Shown: positions 7,065 to 62,143 of the stretch, piece by piece
Position numbering within the stretch: the first letter of the stretch is position 1
Layout of the letters: every line of letters starts with the position of its first letter
DNA from: a virus
Taxonomy: Duplodnaviria; Caudoviricetes
DNA: 64,000 bases
IMG/VR virus record: IMGVR_UViG_3300032214_000855
Location: 7,354-71,353 of that record
Reading direction: 5' to 3' (one strand)
The notes under the pieces: model-generated
Seen by the model: only the letters and a program-made list of their open reading frames with translations
The model's database searches: none
What the model was told of the DNA's origin: nothing
Program-made: the position numbers and the translations under genes

Positions 7065-10000
7065 TTAGGCTAGGGCAAGAACTCTTAGATTTTTAATTCT
7101 AGGAACATGAACTTGATTGGTAGATGTTCCTATTAATTTTATTCTAAAATAACGGAATGAAGGTAGATTATTTGCTGTAAATGTATGTTCTCTAAAATCA
7201 ACATCATTAAATCCAAGCACTGTTGATGGTGCAATATAGTCATCAGGAAGTCCGTCACTATTTTCAAAATTTATAACTTCTTTATATTTGTTCAAATTCA
7301 AATATCCTGGGAAAGGTATGAATATTGGAGAAAAATTCGGATTATCACTAATTGCATAAAAAGCACGAACATTTGAATCTGGAGTCAAGTGTGCATCTAA
7401 TATAATTTTTATTGATGATGATGAAGTCTCCAGTTGAACCTCTTTAGAAACATATTTAAATGAAGTTGGGTCATCAATTGCACTATTTACTCTACTATCG
7501 GTAGAGTAATCGGTTATAATATTATTAACTCTATTTGTGACCAGAGTGATAGATGATGCTCTAGCATCGATTGTAGGACTCAGTAAACTATTATTTGATG
7601 ATAGATCAATTCTTAAATTGAAAGATTTCTCATTAAGTAAGTTCTCAACTTCATTTATATCAGAACAGATAAGTCTTGGTGAATTTAAATTGTTGTTTTC
7701 GTATATTGAGATAGGTTCAAAACCTACATCTAAGAATGAGGATTCATTTCCACTTATACTTGTTCCCTGTATTGTCTTAATAGATCCACTTATTGATGTT
7801 CCATTTACTGTAGTATTTGGAATAATTGGTTCAATTAATTCAAATTGTATATTATTAGATGCCGAAATATCTGACCCCCCAGTAGATTTAGTTTCATTGA
7901 TATAGAGTTTTGGTAAAGATGTTTCTACAGATCTATCAATTCCATCCGAAGACATATCAAGTTTAATGTGATATGAATCTAATGTTATTGGTTCATTGAT
8001 AATTGAGGTATCCACCGTGGATAATTCATGTTGCTTATTAATTCTTCTTAATGATACTCCTCCCAATTCATACTTATATACGGGTGTTCCAATATCATAA
8101 TCCTTTTCGGGTGCTGTCACTATTCCATTAATTTGTCCATTGGAAACTGATTCGTAAGGTATTATTTCATTTCCAATTAAAAGATACCCAGGATTTGTTG
8201 AAGCAACACCAACATTTTCAAAAGTTTGGAACACACTAGAACTGTCTACATATATGGAATCACCTGAAGATATAGAACTAGCAGTAATTTTTTGCGATAA
8301 TTTTGTTGGCACAATATCACTCTCAACTCCAGAGATAATTAAATGATTCTGTGATGAATGCATTCCATGATTTTTTTGATTAACCTTTATATGCAATCCA
8401 TCCGAAACTGTAATCAAATTGCTAACTGCTATATTTAAGTTTACAGTTGAACCAACATTATTTTTATACTGTAATGACGGTGATCCAGAAACAATGAAAT
8501 CACCTTGAACATTATCAAGTATTATTTCATTTATTCTTGATATACTAGAAATAGAAACTCTTGCTCCATATCCGACATTTAGAGATCCTATGGAGGAAAT
8601 TCCTAGCACATCTCCAATTTTATAACCAACTCCTCCATTTACAATTGTTGCTATACCAACTTCACCATTAACTATTGTTACATTAGCAGTTGCATTTCTT
8701 CCATCTCCAGAAATAGATTCTAAATTGACATTATTGAAAATAAATGATCCAGATGATGGAGTGTATCCTATTCCAGGATTAATTAAAGTTAATTGCCCAA
8801 AAGCAGATCCAGCACTGCCAACATAATTTCCAGTTCCTTTTGAATTTGACTGTAAAACAGTGTTTCCTATTACCAATCCAGAATTACTGGGCAATGAGGA
8901 TGCTAAACCAACTCTAACCTTTCTAGAATTGAGTATAACTGAATCTGGAGATAATTTTTTAGAATACTTTAGAGTTTGGTTTGTAAGTTTTGGATTATAG
9001 AAATTAACAAATCCAGATCTAACAAAATTTGCACACCAGAGTTGATACTTCAAATCTTCCCATTGGCTAGGTTCCCACGTAGTTCCATTTTGTGATTTGA
9101 AAAGTGATCCAAAATCTTCTTGATTTGATACAAAAGAATTTGTAATTAAATCATTTTCATTAACTCTTGAAATAAATACCGAATAATCTGGTGATTGTGA
9201 CAATAGGCAAACGGCATAGTCTTTGTTTCCTTCCAAATAAATTGGACGTTTGAATACAAATTCTGTACCTAAAGATCCATCACTTGAAATGGTTATTTCT
9301 GATGGTAATTTGGAAACTTGAGAACCATCTAAAATATAATCTGATGGGTTTGGTCCCCCAGACACTGTTCCATTTGTTATAGGTCTGATTTCCAGATCTA
9401 CAGTAAGACCATCAGTTGAAGGAACTGAATTGAAGTAAATAACACATTTGGTTAAAAATACTCCTTTTGCTCCAACTGAGAATGATTGTGCTAGTGGATC
9501 TCGCGCACAAATTTTTGCGCCTTCTTGTCTAAGTGCTCTTACTAATTGATTACCGGATTGTTCTGTTAAATTTCCACCGGCTGTCCTTTGAATATCAATT
9601 CCAAGTTGTCTTGCTGTTTCGGATATATTTCTAGGTAGTCCTACACTAGCCGCTGCATCACCTAACCTTTCTCTAGCAGCCTGAGCATAAACAGGGCCGT
9701 CATAATTAATCTGGACGGTTGGTGCAGGTGCAGCAGGTGTTGGTGGGGGTGGTGCAGGTGCAGCAGGTGCAGGTGTAGGTGCAGGTGTTGAGGGAGGCGA
9801 ATAAGTGTAAACTGGAGGTGGGGGTGGAGGTGGAGTGTTATCTACCCTAGTATTAGATACCGTTTCTTGAGTTACATCAGTACCCAATATTCTTTCTTGG
9901 GACGATCCAGTTTCTAATATTTCCTTTGATGCTAATTTATAAGATCTTGTTGAAATTGTAGTTGGTTGAACTGTTTCAACAAAACCACTAGCAGTAAAGT

Positions 10001-38259: not shown

Positions 38260-38275
38260 GAATAAAGGAATAGAG

Positions 38276-38347
38276 TAGCAATGGGTGGAATCGAACCACC
38301 GACATAGAGGGTATGAATCTCTTGTTCTACCACTGAACTACATTGCC
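38276..38347 (-). tRNA. trnM-CAT: tRNA-Met (CAT), elongator-like
   Basis: GGCAATGTAGTTCAGTGGTAGAAC..TT-CAT-AC..GGTGGTTCGATTCCACC-CATTGCTA cloverleaf; no encoded CCA. Confidence 0.85.
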
Positions 38348-45572: not shown

Positions 45573-45586
45573 AATAATAAGAATAA

Positions 45587-45660
45587 CGTTTCAGGAGGGA
45601 CTCGAACCCCCGACCAACTGCTTAGAAGGCAGATGCTCTATCCAACTGAGCTACTGAAAC
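45587..45660 (-). tRNA. trnR-TCT: tRNA-Arg (TCT)
   Basis: GTTTCAGTAGCTCAGTTGGATAGAGC..CT-TCT-AA..GGGGGTTCGAGTCCCTC-CTGAAACG. Confidence 0.9.
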
Positions 45661-45744
45661 ATAGACCCTCTGGTTTGTGCATTGTAAAGAGGCATAGAGG
45701 GTGTGGGACTTACTTAAAGTTTGGACCTTTAATGCCCGTAGAAA

Positions 45745-46298: not shown

Positions 46299-46369
46299 TG
46301 GAGAATAGCAGAATCGAACTGCTAATAAGTGCTTGCAAAGCACCCGTTATACCGTTTAACTAATTCCCC
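46299..46369 (-). tRNA. trnA-TGC: tRNA-Ala (TGC)
   Basis: GGGGAAT..GGTGC-TT-TGC-AA-GCACT..AGCAGTTCGATTCTGCT-ATTCTCCA; G3:U70 Ala identity pair present. Confidence 0.85.
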
Positions 46370-47917: not shown

Positions 47918-47976
47918 ATCATACCCCAGATTGGGCGGCGCGGCAAGGGGAGTGTGCCAGTTCCTCAACCGTCCAT
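47918..47976 (-). promoter_or_regulatory. palindrome-box promoter
   Basis: TATGAT -10, TTGCCG -35, TGTGCCAG-N8-CCGTCCAT at 47953-76. Confidence 0.7.
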
Positions 47977-48168
47977 CAGTTCTCTTTTAAGTTCTTGTTT
48001 AAGTTGTTCTCTCTCTTGTTTTTTTCTCATTTGAGATTGACGTGCTTGTGCTTGTGCCTTTGCTCTTTCTTTGAAACGCTGCATCTGGTCTAATTGTCTT
48101 TGTCGCAGTTGTTTTTTTCTTTGCTCCAGTCTATTTACATCTTCATTAAATTGAGTAAAGGTTTTCAT
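47965..48168 (-). CDS. putative internal head protein, CTS-like N-terminus, coiled-coil
   Basis: MKTFTQFNED..; late promoter ATAAATA at 48187-93. Confidence 0.6.
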   Translation of the reverse strand: MKTFTQFNEDVNRLEQRKKQLRQRQLDQMQRFKERAKAQAQARQSQMRKKQEREQLKQELKRELMDG

Positions 48169-48213
48169 TGTTAAACACTTTTTGATTATTTATTTTGTAA
48201 AAGTGTTTTGCAT

Positions 48214-52332: not shown

Positions 52333-52491
52333 TCATTCTTTAACTATAAATTTGTACCAAGTTTCACTCATTCCTTCAATAATCTTATCTGCAGATTCTT
52401 TATCCTCTGCATAACCTTCTGAAATTAAATCCTCTACAACACTCTCGTAGATTTTATAAGTTTCCTGCAATTCTCTTGGTGTTGGTTTCAT
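52333..52491 (-). CDS. small protein with LISEGY..MSETW module (52 aa)
   Basis: Manual translation MKPTPRELQETYKIYESVVEDLISEGYAEDKESADKIIEGMSETWYKFIVKE; late promoter at 52510-16. Confidence 0.6.
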   Translation of the reverse strand: MKPTPRELQETYKIYESVVEDLISEGYAEDKESADKIIEGMSETWYKFIVKE

Positions 52492-52511
52492 TTGACTACT
52501 TTTTCTTTTAT

Positions 52512-52712
52512 TTATTTATTTTTTCTATCTCTAGCATACCATTTACACCAACCATCGGGAGAAATTTTACCTTTCACAGAGGTGCAAGCATTTGGTTCTC
52601 TCCACATATTGCAGTTAGAACACTTTTCACTTCCTTTTGGTTCATTTTGATATTTTGCAACTGCTTTAGATGCTTTCTCTTCTTCAAAGAGAAACTCTTG
52701 AAAGGTTTTCAC
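52512..52712 (-). CDS. HiPIP-type [4Fe-4S] protein with CTS-like N-terminus
   Basis: MKTFQEFLFEEE + KASKAVAKYQNEPKGSEKCSNCNMW..ACTSVKGKISPDGWCKWY (C31-x2-C34-x8-C43-x12-C56). Confidence 0.75.
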   Translation of the reverse strand: MKTFQEFLFEEEKASKAVAKYQNEPKGSEKCSNCNMWREPNACTSVKGKISPDGWCKWYARDRKNK

Positions 52713-52715
52713 TTA

Positions 52716-53333
52716 TCAATCCTCGTCGTCTTCGTCGTTATGTACTGGATGAAATTTCTTTCCAATTTTTGTCGAATACTGCTTACCCCAACTATCTACT
52801 TTTCCAAACCCAGACTTCTTATAAATTGATGCTCTTGTATTTTTATCGGGGTTTCTTCTATTATCACTTGAGTTCTCTTCTGGTTCATTAGATACCAGAT
52901 GCCCACTAGGAATTCTATGTTGGACGTGCTTATCCCAAACCCTCTTTGCGTTCCTTGCAGTTCTTAACTTTTCACCTGGACTCATCTTATCTTGGTCATT
53001 AGACTTACTATGTTCCCACCTAACATTATGTTCGGGTTTGTGTCCGTGTGCGGTTCTTGCTTTCCCACCTAATTTGGCATCATACATATGTTCGTATTCA
53101 TCATCAGAACTATGCCTTTTAGAATGACCAACAGTATAAGTAACTCCAGAAGGTTTATGATGAATAGTCGTAGATCCTCTTCTGTCAGTATTTTGGTCTT
53201 TTCCTCTTGGTCGGTCATACTTAACTTCTAGGTCAGGATGCTTTGACCTATCAAATCCGTGCGAGTCATCATACTGCTTTTTCTTTTCTAGAAGAAAATA
53301 TGCTTCTTCTAGAAATTTTTGAAAAGATTTCAT
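52716..53333 (-). CDS. putative internal head protein (CTS-like), weak GNAT-like C-terminus
   Basis: MKSFQKFLEEAYFLLE..; C-terminal NTRASIYKKSGFG. Confidence 0.6.
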   Translation of the reverse strand: MKSFQKFLEEAYFLLEKKKQYDDSHGFDRSKHPDLEVKYDRPRGKDQNTDRRGSTTIHHKPSGVTYTVGHSKRHSSDDEYEHMYDAKLGGKARTAHGHKPEHNVRWEHSKSNDQDKMSPGEKLRTARNAKRVWDKHVQHRIPSGHLVSNEPEENSSDNRRNPDKNTRASIYKKSGFGKVDSWGKQYSTKIGKKFHPVHNDEDDED

Positions 53334-53791
53334 CTTTGTCCGCCACCAGTTGAACGTGCTTTTTGTGCTCTTCTCAATGCAACCCTTTGTGCTGGTGATG
53401 GACCGGCACTAAATGGTCTTACTCTTTCTCCTTCTGGAGTTTTCTCCATTTTTTGCTTTTCTAGTTTTCCAACACCTCTCAATCTTCCAGGTGCTGCTGC
53501 TCCAGAACCTCCACCACCTTGTGCGTGTCTAGCAGCACCGGGCATTCTAGTAGCATATGGTTGTGTTTCTCTATCAATCATCCCCTGCTTCATTCTACCA
53601 GTTGATGCTCTAAGTGATAGAGATTTTCTTGTTGATTTCTTAACTTCCGAACGACCAGTTTCAGGGTTCTTCACAACTCTACCTGAAGTTGTGGTTACGT
53701 GGAGAGGAGTTTTCGTTTCTCCTTTAACTTTATCCTCTTTACGCATCTCAACGAGGTATGCTTCTTCTAGGAACTCTCTAAAGGTTTTCAT
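53330..53791 (-). CDS. putative internal head protein (CTS-like), R/K/G-rich
   Basis: MKTFREFLEEAYLVE..; late promoter at 53812-18. Confidence 0.6.
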   Translation of the reverse strand: MKTFREFLEEAYLVEMRKEDKVKGETKTPLHVTTTSGRVVKNPETGRSEVKKSTRKSLSLRASTGRMKQGMIDRETQPYATRMPGAARHAQGGGGSGAAAPGRLRGVGKLEKQKMEKTPEGERVRPFSAGPSPAQRVALRRAQKARSTGGGQR

Positions 53792-53810: not shown

Positions 53811-54929
53811 TTATTTATTTATTCCCTTTTCTTTTCTCAATCTTCTCCTCTGTGCCGCAGCAAGTAAATCTTTGTGAGAAATTGAACCGGAATATAACTC
53901 CTTTGTTTTTCCTTCTAGTTCGTGTGCTCCACCTGCTCTATGTCTAATTCCTCTCTTACTGTGCTTTTCTGGTGTTTTATCAGTTGTTGCACCCATTAGA
54001 TTTTTTGGATGGTGTCCGTGATAGATTCCACTCGCAGCATCTTTTTTCTTTTTTGCTTCCCATTCAGCATCACTCATAGATGACTTAATCTTTGCAGAAT
54101 AATGTGTTGGAGTAATATGATGTGCGTCAAGACCTGCCTTATGAAGTTTTCTCTTCTTGGCGTCTGCTGCTGACCTTTCTGAATGAGAACTTAAACTTGC
54201 AATTCTTTCTGCTCTTGCTTTTTTCTCTTGAGCACCACCAGACTTTGGTTTTAGTCTCCATTTTGGATTTTCTGTGCTACCAGCATTGTTTGCATACATT
54301 CCTGCTGGAATTCCTTTGTGGTGCTTTTCTAATTCAGCACGACTTGAAAATGTTGGTTGTTTTGCTTCAATTAAATGTGCTTCTTCTAAGAACTTTTTGA
54401 AAGTCTTCATTTTTGAAGACTGAATATCTTCTTTATTGAAGATTTTACTTACTGCTCTAACTGGTCTTTCAAATGCTTGACGAACTGCTGGAGTTGGTCC
54501 AGTTTTTATCATTCTGGGACTAAATGCTTTATGTGGTCTCCATCCCTTTACACCAGTTTCACCCTTCTTAAAAGATGTGTCAGTCCTAGTAAGTTGCTTT
54601 CTATCATCATCCATCAATTCTTTCCAGGATGCTTTGTTCTCATTAGGAACTCTTTCATTTCTTCCTTTGTTCCACCATTTTTTTAGACGTTTGGATTCGG
54701 AAAAATTTTTCTTTTTACGATTACGTGCTGGTTCTGATACTCTTGCACTATCTAAATTTCTATTTGCTTCCTTTCTCTTTCTCATCAGTTCTCCCATTAA
54801 AGGGAGACTTGGTGCTGCAGTTTTACCCGAAGTTACTAATGACTCCGGAGATTGTGTAGCATTAGCAGCAAATGAAAGTGCCAAAACTGCATTTGCTGCT
54901 GCGTCTCTTTTTCTACCTTCAGAAAGCAT
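53811..54929 (-). CDS. basic late protein with internal CTS-like motif and HNH-like C-terminus
   Basis: Late promoter 54953-59; internal MKTFKKFLEEAHLIE at 54410; DAHHITP..HGHHPKNLM..RH..AH. Confidence 0.6.
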   Translation of the reverse strand: MLSEGRKRDAAANAVLALSFAANATQSPESLVTSGKTAAPSLPLMGELMRKRKEANRNLDSARVSEPARNRKKKNFSESKRLKKWWNKGRNERVPNENKASWKELMDDDRKQLTRTDTSFKKGETGVKGWRPHKAFSPRMIKTGPTPAVRQAFERPVRAVSKIFNKEDIQSSKMKTFKKFLEEAHLIEAKQPTFSSRAELEKHHKGIPAGMYANNAGSTENPKWRLKPKSGGAQEKKARAERIASLSSHSERSAADAKKRKLHKAGLDAHHITPTHYSAKIKSSMSDAEWEAKKKKDAASGIYHGHHPKNLMGATTDKTPEKHSKRGIRHRAGGAHELEGKTKELYSGSISHKDLLAAAQRRRLRKEKGINK

Positions 54930-55214
54930 TTATCTACAAAAATACCTTCTGTTATTTATCACCCTCCCCTTTCTCTCAGACTGCGGACAAGATATTCAGT
55001 AAATGCTTCCATTTTTTCTGGGGATACTGATTGTGGAAGTTGATTGATTGCATTTTTAAGCGCAGTCATTTCATTAAACTCATCTTCAGTAAGAGTTTGA
55101 TTTTTAGATGGAAGGGTCATACTATTTTGCTCCCGTGTTTATGTTCAAATCCTAACATTATTTAAGGTAGTTGGGAGATTCCTTAATATTGTCTTTAGAG
55201 TATAGTTACAAAAC

Positions 55215-58483: not shown

Positions 58484-58542
58484 ATTATAGCAGGTTTTTA
58501 GGGGTTCTGGTGGGGTCTTGTGCCAGTTTGAGAAGTGGTTAG
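58484..58542 (-). promoter_or_regulatory. palindrome-box promoter
   Basis: TGC-TATAAT -10 plus TGTGCCAG-N8-GTGGTTAG at 58519-42. Confidence 0.75.
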
Positions 58543-59858
58543 ATGCCGAACCTTCCACGATTTGCGTTGAAGTTTTGTTGTATTTCTGCTGCTGTGAGTG
58601 CTCTGTTGTATTGAAATACACCAGCAATTTGTCCATTGACCCAGTGATTTTGATTTACACATCCTATAGAAAATTCATTTGTTGCAGTATTACCTACTCC
58701 CGATGCAAGTGTGCTAACCAAATTACCATTTAAATATGCCCTCACATATCCATCTGATGATAATGTTAAACCTTGACAATACCAAACATTTGGACTTAAG
58801 ATGGTTCCATTTACTTGTTCTCCATTAGTTCCCATATAATAGTAGAAATAACCTCCATTACTTATTCCCAAATAATTATAAGCATTTCCTTCTTGTGTTC
58901 CTGTTAAACTATATCCATTAGGCAAAGAATTTACTGTATTATATTTAATCCACACAAAATAACTTCTATATCCAGAAGGTTTAAAGTTTGTAGATATCCT
59001 ATCATTGGTTCCATCAAACACCAAAGTACCACCATTAGCACTACTATAAGTAGGAGTATTTGCAAATGTTCCGATGATACTATCATTATTATAATTTGCC
59101 AACCTACTCGCAGTGAATCCAGATAATAGTGTTGCTATAGAAGGTTCTGTTCCATCAATCGCATCAATTCTTGGGTCAAAAAGTTGTAATCTTGTCGTGC
59201 TATCACCACAATAATAATGATAGCATCTATGAACTGCTGATGTTACATCACTTCCTGCCCATTTAACATCTGCTCCAATATTACACGCATTGATTGATGC
59301 TACTTTTGTAGTTCCACCAGAAACCGTATATATTCCACTTTCAGGATGCTGTCCAGTATATGAAGTATTATAAGGATAACAATGACCTACTACCAAATAC
59401 CAAACATCTTTTTCAAATCCACCAGTTCCTCTACAATCCCAATATGGATTTCCTTCTACAGCATTATTATCTGTTCTTCTAATACCACTTGCATTTCCAT
59501 ACAATCCAAGATAAAAAGTTCCACCGCTTGTTGTGGAAGTTCTTTTTACCCAAACAGAAAATCTATAAAGTTTTGTATTATCAATACCGAAATAGTCACT
59601 ATTCCAACCACCATCAGCATTACCATCTCCAGATGGTCTTGTTTCCCAAACAATTGAAGATTTGCCAAATGGGTCTGTTCCTAAAACTCTTTCATTCTCA
59701 TTTGTATTTCCATTTTGAGAATAATAAGTTGCTCCACCCGAACCTAAATTCCAAGAAAGTGAATTGATTACAGAATTTGCAAAACATTTTCTATTTCCAG
59801 CATCAAATGATAATACAAGACCAGATTCACTTACATCTGGACCACTATAAACTCCCAC
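58539..59858 (-). CDS. LamG/concanavalin-A-like lectin domain protein (putative tail/adhesin)
   Basis: Restarted at GTG 59858 (MGVYSGPD); SGLVLSFDAGN..; C-terminal YNRALTAAEIQQNFNANRGRFGI. Confidence 0.8.
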   Translation of the reverse strand: MGVYSGPDVSESGLVLSFDAGNRKCFANSVINSLSWNLGSGGATYYSQNGNTNENERVLGTDPFGKSSIVWETRPSGDGNADGGWNSDYFGIDNTKLYRFSVWVKRTSTTSGGTFYLGLYGNASGIRRTDNNAVEGNPYWDCRGTGGFEKDVWYLVVGHCYPYNTSYTGQHPESGIYTVSGGTTKVASINACNIGADVKWAGSDVTSAVHRCYHYYCGDSTTRLQLFDPRIDAIDGTEPSIATLLSGFTASRLANYNNDSIIGTFANTPTYSSANGGTLVFDGTNDRISTNFKPSGYRSYFVWIKYNTVNSLPNGYSLTGTQEGNAYNYLGISNGGYFYYYMGTNGEQVNGTILSPNVWYCQGLTLSSDGYVRAYLNGNLVSTLASGVGNTATNEFSIGCVNQNHWVNGQIAGVFQYNRALTAAEIQQNFNANRGRFGI

Positions 59859-59859
59859 T

Positions 59860-60186
59860 TCACTCTTCTCCCATAGGCATAGGTGCTGACCACTCTGGAC
59901 CATTCAGGATTTCTAAAATCTCTTCATAAGAATAAATCTCTTCAAGTGTTGTGAGTTCTTCAATAAAACTTGGTTGAGGACTTGGTGTTATAGTTTCAAT
60001 CTCATTGGTTTCTGTATTTGTGATTTCATAAGGTTCTAAACTTTCTGGAGAATCCCATTTCACAAAAGTCTTCGTGCCATCTACACTGCGTCGTAGGGTA
60101 TTTTCATTACTCTCACATACTGATGAGAAATCAATTTTATCAATTTCAGTTGTTGAGAATATTGCGAAGTTTCTTGATTCGTACAT
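59860..60186 (-). CDS. hypothetical protein associated with LamG genes
   Basis: IFSTTEIDKIDFSSVCESNENTLRRSVDGTKTFVKW. Confidence 0.7.
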   Translation of the reverse strand: MYESRNFAIFSTTEIDKIDFSSVCESNENTLRRSVDGTKTFVKWDSPESLEPYEITNTETNEIETITPSPQPSFIEELTTLEEIYSYEEILEILNGPEWSAPMPMGEE

Positions 60187-60200
60187 AGTTTTTGAAGTAT

Positions 60201-61421
60201 TTAGATACCAAAACGACCACGGAGTGCTTGGAAGTTTTGTTGGATTTCTGCTGCAGAAAGTATACGATTATAAATATCAAATTTTGATATTTTTCCATTC
60301 CAATTCCTACTACCTCCCCATTGCCATCTTCCCAATGCTAAACTTTGATTTACATAGTTAATAGTTCTTCCATTTGCCAGGTTTCCTTGACTATGAAACT
60401 GCCCATTAACATATGCAATGACTCTTGAAGATGGGGAAAATGTAAATGCAACATGATACCAAGTATTAGCATTTAATACAATTGTTCCAGATGCACTAAT
60501 AGTACCAGAACCATCAATTACTCCAAAGACATATTGATTTAAATTATTTTCATTTTGTTGGAATACAAAATTCTGTGTTCCTGTATGATTATTATCAAAT
60601 ATATCAGCGTATGTTGTTTGTGTTGACCCACAATTTACCCATAAAGAAATGGTAAATGTTTGATAAGTAAAGAATGATCCACACTCAACATACATATTAG
60701 TTCCATCAAACTCCAAATAGTTACCAGTATCACCGTAAATCGGTAGACCAAAGTTCAAGTGGGCAACTTGGTCTGGGTTTGTTGAATAATTTTGGAATAC
60801 CCACCCATATGCATTTCCTGCACCTAACCCAGGTTTACCGACTAAAATCCATTCTGGAGAAGAGAATCCAATAATTGAATCCACATTACTTGGAGCACCT
60901 AAATCTCTAAGAATTGCATATTGTGCTGATGTATGATATGAGTCTCTATGAGAACCTGAAACAATATGAACGGCATCTGGATAAGTTGCTACAGCAGTTG
61001 CATATTCAGAAACAAAAGTATCAACTGCAGCAGTGCCCAAATATGAATCATATACTGTAGTTTTTACCCAAGATTGTGTTGGGTTATTATAAACTGCATA
61101 ATTTAATGCCCTACTAAAATCAAAGATTTTAGTACCCGAAGTTACATTATAACCAGGAGTAATACCATCTCTATTGGCAGCAGAACCACCAAAAGAACCC
61201 TCTGGATAATCAATTGCAAAAATTGTGTAATATGAAAGATTTCCCAACTTTACGCCATTATAAGAATTAATTACATCTGATTGAGATGTTAAATTCTTAA
61301 CAAGTTGGGGTGCATTATTAAATCCAGTACAACCTAGTGGTGAAATACACTTACGGTTTGCAACATCTATAGCAAATACTAATCCACTTGATACTATACC
61401 TGGATTATAAGCAATTCCCAT
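60201..61421 (-). CDS. LamG/concanavalin-A-like lectin domain protein
   Basis: SGLVFAIDVAN..; FTISLWV..WYHVAFT..YNRILSAAEIQQNFQALRGRFGI. Confidence 0.8.
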   Translation of the reverse strand: MGIAYNPGIVSSGLVFAIDVANRKCISPLGCTGFNNAPQLVKNLTSQSDVINSYNGVKLGNLSYYTIFAIDYPEGSFGGSAANRDGITPGYNVTSGTKIFDFSRALNYAVYNNPTQSWVKTTVYDSYLGTAAVDTFVSEYATAVATYPDAVHIVSGSHRDSYHTSAQYAILRDLGAPSNVDSIIGFSSPEWILVGKPGLGAGNAYGWVFQNYSTNPDQVAHLNFGLPIYGDTGNYLEFDGTNMYVECGSFFTYQTFTISLWVNCGSTQTTYADIFDNNHTGTQNFVFQQNENNLNQYVFGVIDGSGTISASGTIVLNANTWYHVAFTFSPSSRVIAYVNGQFHSQGNLANGRTINYVNQSLALGRWQWGGSRNWNGKISKFDIYNRILSAAEIQQNFQALRGRFGI

Positions 61422-61450
61422 TCTCTCTCAATACCTCTTCGTTTTTGTAT

Positions 61451-62143
61451 TTAGGTTAGACCAAAGCGTCCTTTGAGTGCATTGTAGTTTTGTCGGATTT
61501 CTTGTGATGTGAGTACACGATTATAAAATTTAATAGATGCAATTTTTCCCCTAAAAAAATACATAGAGTCATTATTATCTCTGCCTATGTATGCATCATT
61601 AGTGGGCCATTGTGTAGTTCCACTCCAACTATCTAATAATGTGTTGATTAAATCTCCATTTATATAAAGATATCTTGTCGTTGAATTTGCTTGAATTGCA
61701 ACATAATGCCATGAAGAATTATAAAAATTGTATGACGAAGGTGAAGTAATAGATGTAACAGAACTGCCATTATCCAAAGAATAACTTAAACTATTACTAT
61801 AAACAAATAATCTAATCCCATAAGTAAGTCCCAATAATCCTGGTAGTGTTCCAGTCGTAGGAGTTGTTCCATCAGAACTAAACCATAGTTCTATAGTAAA
61901 ATTAGGTAATGGGAAAAATGTATTACCAGTTCCAAGACTTATAACATCATTCACCCCATCAAAACTCAAAGAACCTAAATTATTGCCAGAATACCCAACT
62001 CCATTCACAAGAGTTCCATTTTTCCCATTACCACTCAAATCAGTCCAAGTGGTTCCAGAACCAGGATAAGACTTTGTATTTCCTGCATCTAAGCAAAGGA
62101 CTAATCCTGATGTAACTATGGAGGGACTGTGAAATAATGCCAC
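61451..62143 (-). CDS. LamG/concanavalin-A-like lectin domain protein
   Basis: SGLVLCLDAGNTKSYPGSGTTWTDLSGNG..FDGVND..YNRVLTSQEIRQNYNALKGRFG; late promoter at 62169-75. Confidence 0.85.
   Translation of the reverse strand: MALFHSPSIVTSGLVLCLDAGNTKSYPGSGTTWTDLSGNGKNGTLVNGVGYSGNNLGSLSFDGVNDVISLGTGNTFFPLPNFTIELWFSSDGTTPTTGTLPGLLGLTYGIRLFVYSNSLSYSLDNGSSVTSITSPSSYNFYNSSWHYVAIQANSTTRYLYINGDLINTLLDSWSGTTQWPTNDAYIGRDNNDSMYFFRGKIASIKFYNRVLTSQEIRQNYNALKGRFGLT

Follow-up and report, generated by a model that had tools for sequence, protein, structure and literature searches.

The gene under study lies at 52512–52712 on the minus strand of the window, by which we mean the whole 64,000-nt stretch analysed here (positions 7,354 to 71,353 of the 71-kb IMG/VR contig IMGVR_UViG_3300032214_000855). 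It comprises 66 codons and a stop, is read from a GTG, and was delimited on the basis of its open reading frame, a Pfam match, a match to the protein PioC and a predicted fold. Two stops in tandem, TGA TAA, close the upstream gene directly before the ORF, and a Shine-Dalgarno sequence, GAGGA (52720–52724, minus strand; assigned from the sequence), is situated 7 nt before the GTG. The equivalent start was an ATG in 48 of 49 distinct relatives, as compared with the GTG of the window gene. Open frames were also present on the opposite strand, and two of these (52476–52829 and 52492–52650) were considered as genes and dropped because conservation tracks the minus-strand frame, to which both the family matches and the pN/pS of 0.12 (at a pS of 0.63, from 49 distinct gene sequences) belong.

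A T4-like cyanomyovirus is the source of the window, a genome fragment with genes for gp6, gp8, gp15 and a neck protein; its gp15 is 62–66% identical to those of marine Synechococcus myoviruses. The 71-kb contig is estimated to be 33% complete, and neither an S77 protease gene nor the head genes are in this fragment. Relatives that carry the gene described above do encode S77, gp22 and gp23, and the S77 (gp21-type) prohead protease was identified in Synechococcus phage S-SRM01 and in the genomes that we refer to as G408 and G404. Elsewhere in the window there are three tRNA genes on the minus (coding) strand, Met-CAT (38275–38347), Arg-TCT (45586–45661) and Ala-TGC (46299–46369), and three consecutive minus-strand ORFs at 58539–62143 have Laminin_G_3 (concanavalin-like lectin) domains and are probably fibre or receptor-binding proteins.

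The product of ORF 52512–52712 is almost certainly a HiPIP of the PioC type. The earlier note, made from the sequence alone, had read it as a small high-potential iron-sulfur protein and had named an HMM search and a structure prediction as checks; the HMM, the solved homologue and the predicted fold were all found to agree on this identity. Each residue on which that reading had rested is present in the ORF translation, namely Cys31, Cys34, Cys43 and Cys56 (ligand codons at 52620–52622, 52611–52613, 52584–52586 and 52545–52547, minus strand), Tyr21-Gln22 and Gly54-Trp55-Cys56. The Pfam HIPIP model (PF01355) matched the protein with 24.2 bits (E 4e-5), a small margin of about 2 bits over the gathering cut-off of 22, and scored 23.2 bits in a six-frame search. 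A PHROGs search with the protein produced no match. The best solved-structure match, by phmmer against the PDB, was PioC of Rhodopseudomonas palustris TIE-1 (6xyv; E 3.7e-11), with residues 12–60 of the phage protein aligning gap-free with residues 3–51 of mature PioC. An AlphaFold2 model, for which a 130-sequence family alignment was the input, had a pLDDT of 85.9 and the HiPIP fold. PioC also led the Foldseek comparison of this model with the PDB (TM 0.79, rmsd 1.4 Å, 43% identity over 49 residues), and the best 17 PDB fold matches were HiPIPs, every one.

The family alignment of 130 sequences had invariant columns at Y21, C31, C34, C43 and C56 and near-invariant columns at P25, P40, V46, G48, G54 and W55. 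The ligands of PioC are Cys22, Cys25, Cys34 and Cys47, with W46 preceding the last Cys, and its cluster is shielded by this Trp together with an aromatic residue 2–3 positions beyond; the working range of HiPIPs is +50 to +500 mV (PMC7462912). The phage protein has W55 before its fourth Cys and W58/Y59 at PioC’s second shielding position, and we infer that it binds a [4Fe-4S] cluster.

An exhaustive search of cluster representatives returned 1229 HiPIP relatives at E <= 1e-3, and a single 90% cluster contains 338 member sequences. At least 88 IMG/VR loci encode full-length relatives, 80 of which (73–88% identical) were kept for analysis. Among 50,697 deposited phage records the only carrier was S-SRM01 (freshwater, Singapore), and a megablast of the HiPIP region against phages gave no match. 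The S-SRM01 protein, QPX48026.1, is hypothetical in GenBank and has an automatic HiPIP-profile name in UniProt, these being the only two kinds of label found on database copies of the phage HiPIP. The gene is unmentioned in the S-SRM01 paper, which contains neither mass spectrometry nor a virion proteome, and our literature searches turned up no paper on phage HiPIPs. Directly upstream of the HiPIP gene in 77 of the 80 IMG/VR loci is an ORF of about 105 aa (MLSTQYRL...; QPX48025.1 in S-SRM01, L001:5678-6001) whose end reaches or overlaps the start codon of the HiPIP gene. This conserved neighbour was dropped as a clue to function, as it had no family match and is absent from the 71-kb contig, where tagged genes (described below) stand in its place.

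The pN/pS values by part, from the 49 distinct sequences, were 0.145 for the N-terminal tag and 0.114 for the HiPIP domain. Between the window phage and the other carriers the HiPIP is 74–82% identical, as against 50–58% for gp15. The earlier note had also held that HiPIPs are not standard photosynthetic carriers of cyanobacteria, and this was upheld in a sample of 401 cyanobacterial genomes across the phylum, obtained through a psbA scan, in none of which the Pfam model or the profile of the family found a match. On this basis a host-derived HiPIP was rejected, and the phage gene does not appear to have been copied from a host. The 48-residue domain gave a weakly resolved tree, in which a branch (support 82/69) separated all tagged and leaderless sequences from all those with a Tat leader. 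The HiPIP core charge was +4.4 in the phage proteins versus +2.4 in the Tat-bearing ones, a modest gap that is not decisive.

Codons 1–10 of the gene (52683–52712, minus strand) encode MKTFQEFLFE, which resembles a T4-type capsid targeting sequence (CTS) with a predicted protease site at L8-x-E10. Residues 1–30 contain neither a twin-arginine motif nor a hydrophobic leader, consistent with the earlier note, which had seen no Tat leader here. By our reading of the T4 genome, the internal proteins IPII and IPIII both start MKTYQEFIAE and IPI starts MKTFKEF; the phage decapeptide is identical to the IPII/IPIII sequence at seven of ten positions, with Phe for Tyr at position 4 and Leu for Ile at position 8. 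The first ten residues of IPIII are enough for packaging, and within the T4 tag positions 4 and 7 weigh most in targeting and positions 8 and 10 in cleavage by gp21 (PMC9026906, a review of Black’s work). All four of these positions (F4, F7, L8 and E10) are conserved in kind in the phage HiPIP. Only about 12 residues stand ahead of the domain in the phage protein, whereas cellular relatives mostly have a twin-arginine leader of about 40 residues (a Tat leader was present in 59 of the 130 aligned relatives). The predicted cut after Glu10 would make residue 11 the first of a mature protein of residues 11–66 (52515–52682, minus strand; 6.4 kDa, pI 9.4), and because residue 11 aligns with residue 2 of mature PioC, the tag would substitute for the leader at the domain boundary. 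The tag was kept in 79 of the 80 IMG/VR relatives, and in five of these 79 loci it reads MKSYQEFIAE, which is identical to the start of T4 IPII and IPIII at nine of ten positions. The description of this stretch in the earlier note as a capsid-targeting-like tag was therefore well founded, given the T4 comparison, its retention in the relatives, the gp21-type proteases of the complete relatives and five further tagged ORFs in the contig.

Six tagged ORFs, including the HiPIP gene, were found in the 71-kb contig, and the other five have unrelated bodies. Three of the five stand directly upstream of the HiPIP gene on the same strand. The nearest (52716–53333, 205 aa, starting MKSFQKFLEEAY) is basic (pI 9.4) and had no family match; the second (53330–53791, 153 aa, starting MKTFREFLEEAY) is very basic (pI 11.4), with a weak phrog_3966 match and no match by tblastn. 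The third is a tagged frame of 199 aa (53811–54410, starting MKTFKKFLEEAH) that is in frame within a 372-aa ORF at 53811–54929. This longer ORF has its own ATAAATA (54953–54959) ahead of the ATG at 54929, and the in-frame tag start at 54410 has no strong preceding ribosome site. The ORF may encode a single protein that carries the tag internally, or it may have two starts. A degenerate DNA pattern for the tag matched at these three starts (53333, 53791 and 54410), compared with 0.00 matches expected in shuffled sequence. The fourth tagged ORF (47965–48168, minus strand, 67 aa, pI 11.2) starts MKTFTQFNED and has an ATAAATA at 48187–48193, and another, at contig position 1551, is homologous to a 106-aa tagged ORF of G408. 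The pI of the tagged neighbours ranges from 9.4 to 11.4, as compared with 9.4 for the predicted mature HiPIP and 9.6 for T4 IPII and IPIII, and their bodies had no confident family match in Pfam or PHROGs.

Similar sets of tagged genes were present in other phages. At L007, the closest relative locus, five ORFs carry the tag, with cargo that differs in part from that of the window. A tagged ORF of 79 aa (L007:6201-6440, MKTYKEFISEHCGC...) is directly downstream of the HiPIP gene and its cargo is absent from the window. The complete relative G408 (246.5 kb, with terminal repeats) has four tagged ORFs, versus none in a reversed-sequence control. Its 106-aa tagged ORF is directly upstream of a putative portal gene, which is followed in order by a short ORF, the S77 protease, a gp22-type scaffold and gp23. 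Just before this head-assembly module, on the opposite strand, are two adjacent genes for B12-binding radical SAM proteins (L269:6988-10619). P-SSM2 is a marine Prochlorococcus phage, and its ORF 115 (PSSM2_115, L178:770-1030, 86 aa) starts MKSFKQFLEEAY and has a neighbour annotated as a virion structural protein. A strict DNA pattern for the tag had no match in S-PM2, Syn9 or P-SSM4.

The timing of transcription was considered from promoter motifs. A T4-type late-promoter-like motif, AATAAATAAATA, is present at 53812–53822 (minus strand), 20–30 nt upstream of the start at 53791; in the roughly 1.1 kb that precedes the HiPIP gene itself, no such motif was found. The AATAAATAAATA motif probably drives the string of genes from 53791 to 52512, with the HiPIP gene transcribed along with them. 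In the window 19 of 22 copies of ATAAATA are on the coding strand, many of them just before structural genes, although the motif has no overall enrichment in this AT-rich DNA. The strict TATAAATA was absent upstream of the HiPIP unit in the relatives, where 18 of 52 distinct loci had the relaxed ATAAATA ahead of the two-gene unit. As the strict form is missing and the relaxed one is found in about a third of relatives, late transcription of the HiPIP gene is something that we infer and consider plausible.

HiPIP modules were also identified within other phage proteins. A second leaderless viral group (L100-L117, P0025-P0050) has N-termini such as MKIEDLFEEK, again containing L-x-E. Beyond the domain these proteins have the motif GGAYGKRGK and variable extensions, GH19/LysM among them, that reach 978 aa; the phages that encode them have genomes of at most 330 kb and an S77 protease as well. 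The Pfam domains fused to HiPIP included GH19 with LysM, phage tail lysozyme with InPase, and NUDIX with DUF2213, and in BFVD there are HiPIP folds in proteins of uncultured phages that bear the names Zeta toxin, XkdF, SppA, prohead protease and ParB. These fusions to virion-type domains support a role for the HiPIP as virion cargo, with the exception of the GH19 case, since this GH19 matches phage genes annotated as endolysins and endolysins need not be packaged. Phage polyvalent proteins that bear InPase have been predicted to be packaged and injected (PMC5512222, Iyer et al. 2017).

Based on these comparisons, we lean with moderate confidence towards a model in which a PioC-type HiPIP, with a T4-type tag replacing the Tat leader, is packaged into the head and injected. 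In this model the HiPIP gene would be transcribed late together with the other tagged genes, as the promoter motif suggests, and the protein would be made in the host cytoplasm, where the Fe-S assembly machinery of the host would supply its cluster. Cellular HiPIPs likewise receive their cluster before Tat export. Residues 1–10 would then dock the protein in the scaffolding core of the prohead, and a gp21-type S77 protease would cut after Glu10 (L-F-E|E) to give a 56-residue basic holoprotein that would remain amid the packed DNA. HiPIP clusters are buried and oxygen-tolerant, and a shielded, oxygen-stable cluster of this kind could last in the extracellular particle. The protein would be ejected with the genome into the next host, like T4 IPI–IPIII. 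It is thus probable that the phage packs an Fe-S protein apparently absent from its cyanobacterial hosts and injects it. Our best guess for what follows, and the least certain step, is one-electron redox chemistry or redox sensing at the onset of infection. We know of no obvious partner in the cyanobacterial cytoplasm for a carrier of +50 to +500 mV, and for this reason a sensing, structural or anti-defence role is a live alternative. A T4 head holds approximately 1000 molecules of internal protein (PMC3012670), so that even at partial occupancy there could be tens to hundreds of clusters per virion. In its widest form, the proposal would be that T4-like cyanophages and wider aquatic phages load an oxygen-stable [4Fe-4S] HiPIP in the capsid and inject it with their DNA, which we regard as possible, if somewhat short of probable.

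The phage HiPIP might instead be a cytoplasmic Fe-S protein that is never packaged, acting during infection as a redox buffer or a soluble carrier of electrons, as petF and other redox genes of cyanophages do, with its N-terminal motif a translation or stability signal common to the gene family. S-SRM01 does encode a ferredoxin, a peroxiredoxin and hli, the phage HiPIPs sit in a wider leaderless clade of which many members have no recognisable tag, and most relatives have no evident late promoter. The motif is, moreover, found on T4 gp61.1, a hypothetical protein of 54 aa from the primase (replication) gene region (L177:467-631) that starts MKTFKEFIKE; because this protein bears a CTS-like motif and is annotated only as hypothetical, such a motif alone may not ensure packaging. 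However, we think it unlikely that the HiPIP stays behind in the cell, as the motif fits an experimentally defined ten-residue packaging signal at the positions that were functionally mapped, starts several unrelated basic proteins in tandem as well as an ORF in the head-assembly module of G408, and ends within one residue of the start of the mature HiPIP domain.

A different possibility accepts packaging and questions the redox function, with the HiPIP fold serving as a small, metal-stabilised basic scaffold whose cluster is structural and does not transfer electrons. Such a protein might be a DNA counter-ion or an anti-defence binder like T4 IPI*, and it would accord with T4 internal proteins being diverse defence-countering cargo with only the CTS in common (PMC3012670), with the tagged cargo next to the HiPIP gene differing among phages, and with the mature HiPIP being basic and its R/K-rich C-terminal tail conserved. 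We nevertheless consider this quite unlikely, since the phage protein has strictly kept all the cluster-shielding aromatics and the Tyr typical of redox-active HiPIPs, and the recurrence of the domain in many unrelated phage proteins suggests that it has an activity of its own. That the gene is a degenerate, non-functional remnant, or encodes a Cys4 zinc protein merely resembling a HiPIP, would fit the marginal Pfam score but is highly improbable in view of the strong purifying selection over at least 49 distinct sequences, the strength of the PioC match, the confident HiPIP fold and the size of the 90% cluster.

What is new in the packaged and injected HiPIP that we favour, and is supported by the sequence comparisons, is a HiPIP with a capsid targeting tag in the place of a Tat leader, that is, a candidate T4-type internal protein with Fe-S cargo. 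The T4 internal proteins are so far known mainly as orphan, defence-countering cargo. If our reading is true, a capsid targeting system conserved from coliphages to cyanophages would deliver cofactor-bearing proteins, and Fe-S redox proteins would be a class of virion cargo. At the levels of T4 internal proteins, the virion would contain protein-bound iron amounting to tens to hundreds of copies, each with four Fe, which would provide a testable case of iron inside virions and bear on the debate over phage-bound iron in aquatic environments (the Ferrojan Horse idea). Cyanobacteria appear to lack such a redox protein, which would reach the host at time zero and raise the question of the role of a high-potential one-electron centre in a newly infected phototroph. 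The recurrence of HiPIP modules with virion-type domains suggests that the phenomenon may be general and overlooked.

Among characterized HiPIPs, the phage protein is most readily compared with PioC, a protein of 54 residues from the pioABC photoferrotrophy operon. The two share the Cys spacing C-x2-C-x8-C-x12-C, a mature domain of minimal size, a Trp just ahead of the fourth Cys, and an aromatic residue 2–3 positions beyond that Cys. PioC has a Tat leader, whereas the phage HiPIP is leaderless and has a T4-type tag and a basic C-terminal tail. PioC is periplasmic and acts between PioA and the reaction centre (PMC7462912). No pioA- or pioB-like partner was seen near the phage gene, which also differs in being virus-encoded, with a host phylum in which no HiPIP was found in 401 genomes.

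Phage polyvalent proteins offer a second comparison, the likeness being the presence of HiPIP domains or folds inside large phage proteins, although neither HiPIP nor iron-sulfur domains occur anywhere in the account of polyvalent proteins (PMC5512222). The window HiPIP differs from such proteins in standing alone, with 66 residues and its own tag.

Of the systems considered, T4 IPI, IPII and IPIII provide the model for the proposed packaging. The decapeptide agrees at seven of ten positions, and at up to nine of ten in relatives, with L/I-x-E at positions 8–10. Both systems consist of small basic cargo encoded by clustered tagged genes whose bodies are unrelated and vary among phages, and both belong to T4-like phages, with the S77 protease present in the relatives. 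They differ in that Glu follows the predicted cut in the phage HiPIP, where T4 and the neighbouring tagged genes have Ala, and in that the cyanophage tags are known from sequence. They differ also in their cargo, which in T4 consists of orphan basic proteins and in the window phage includes a recognisable metalloprotein.
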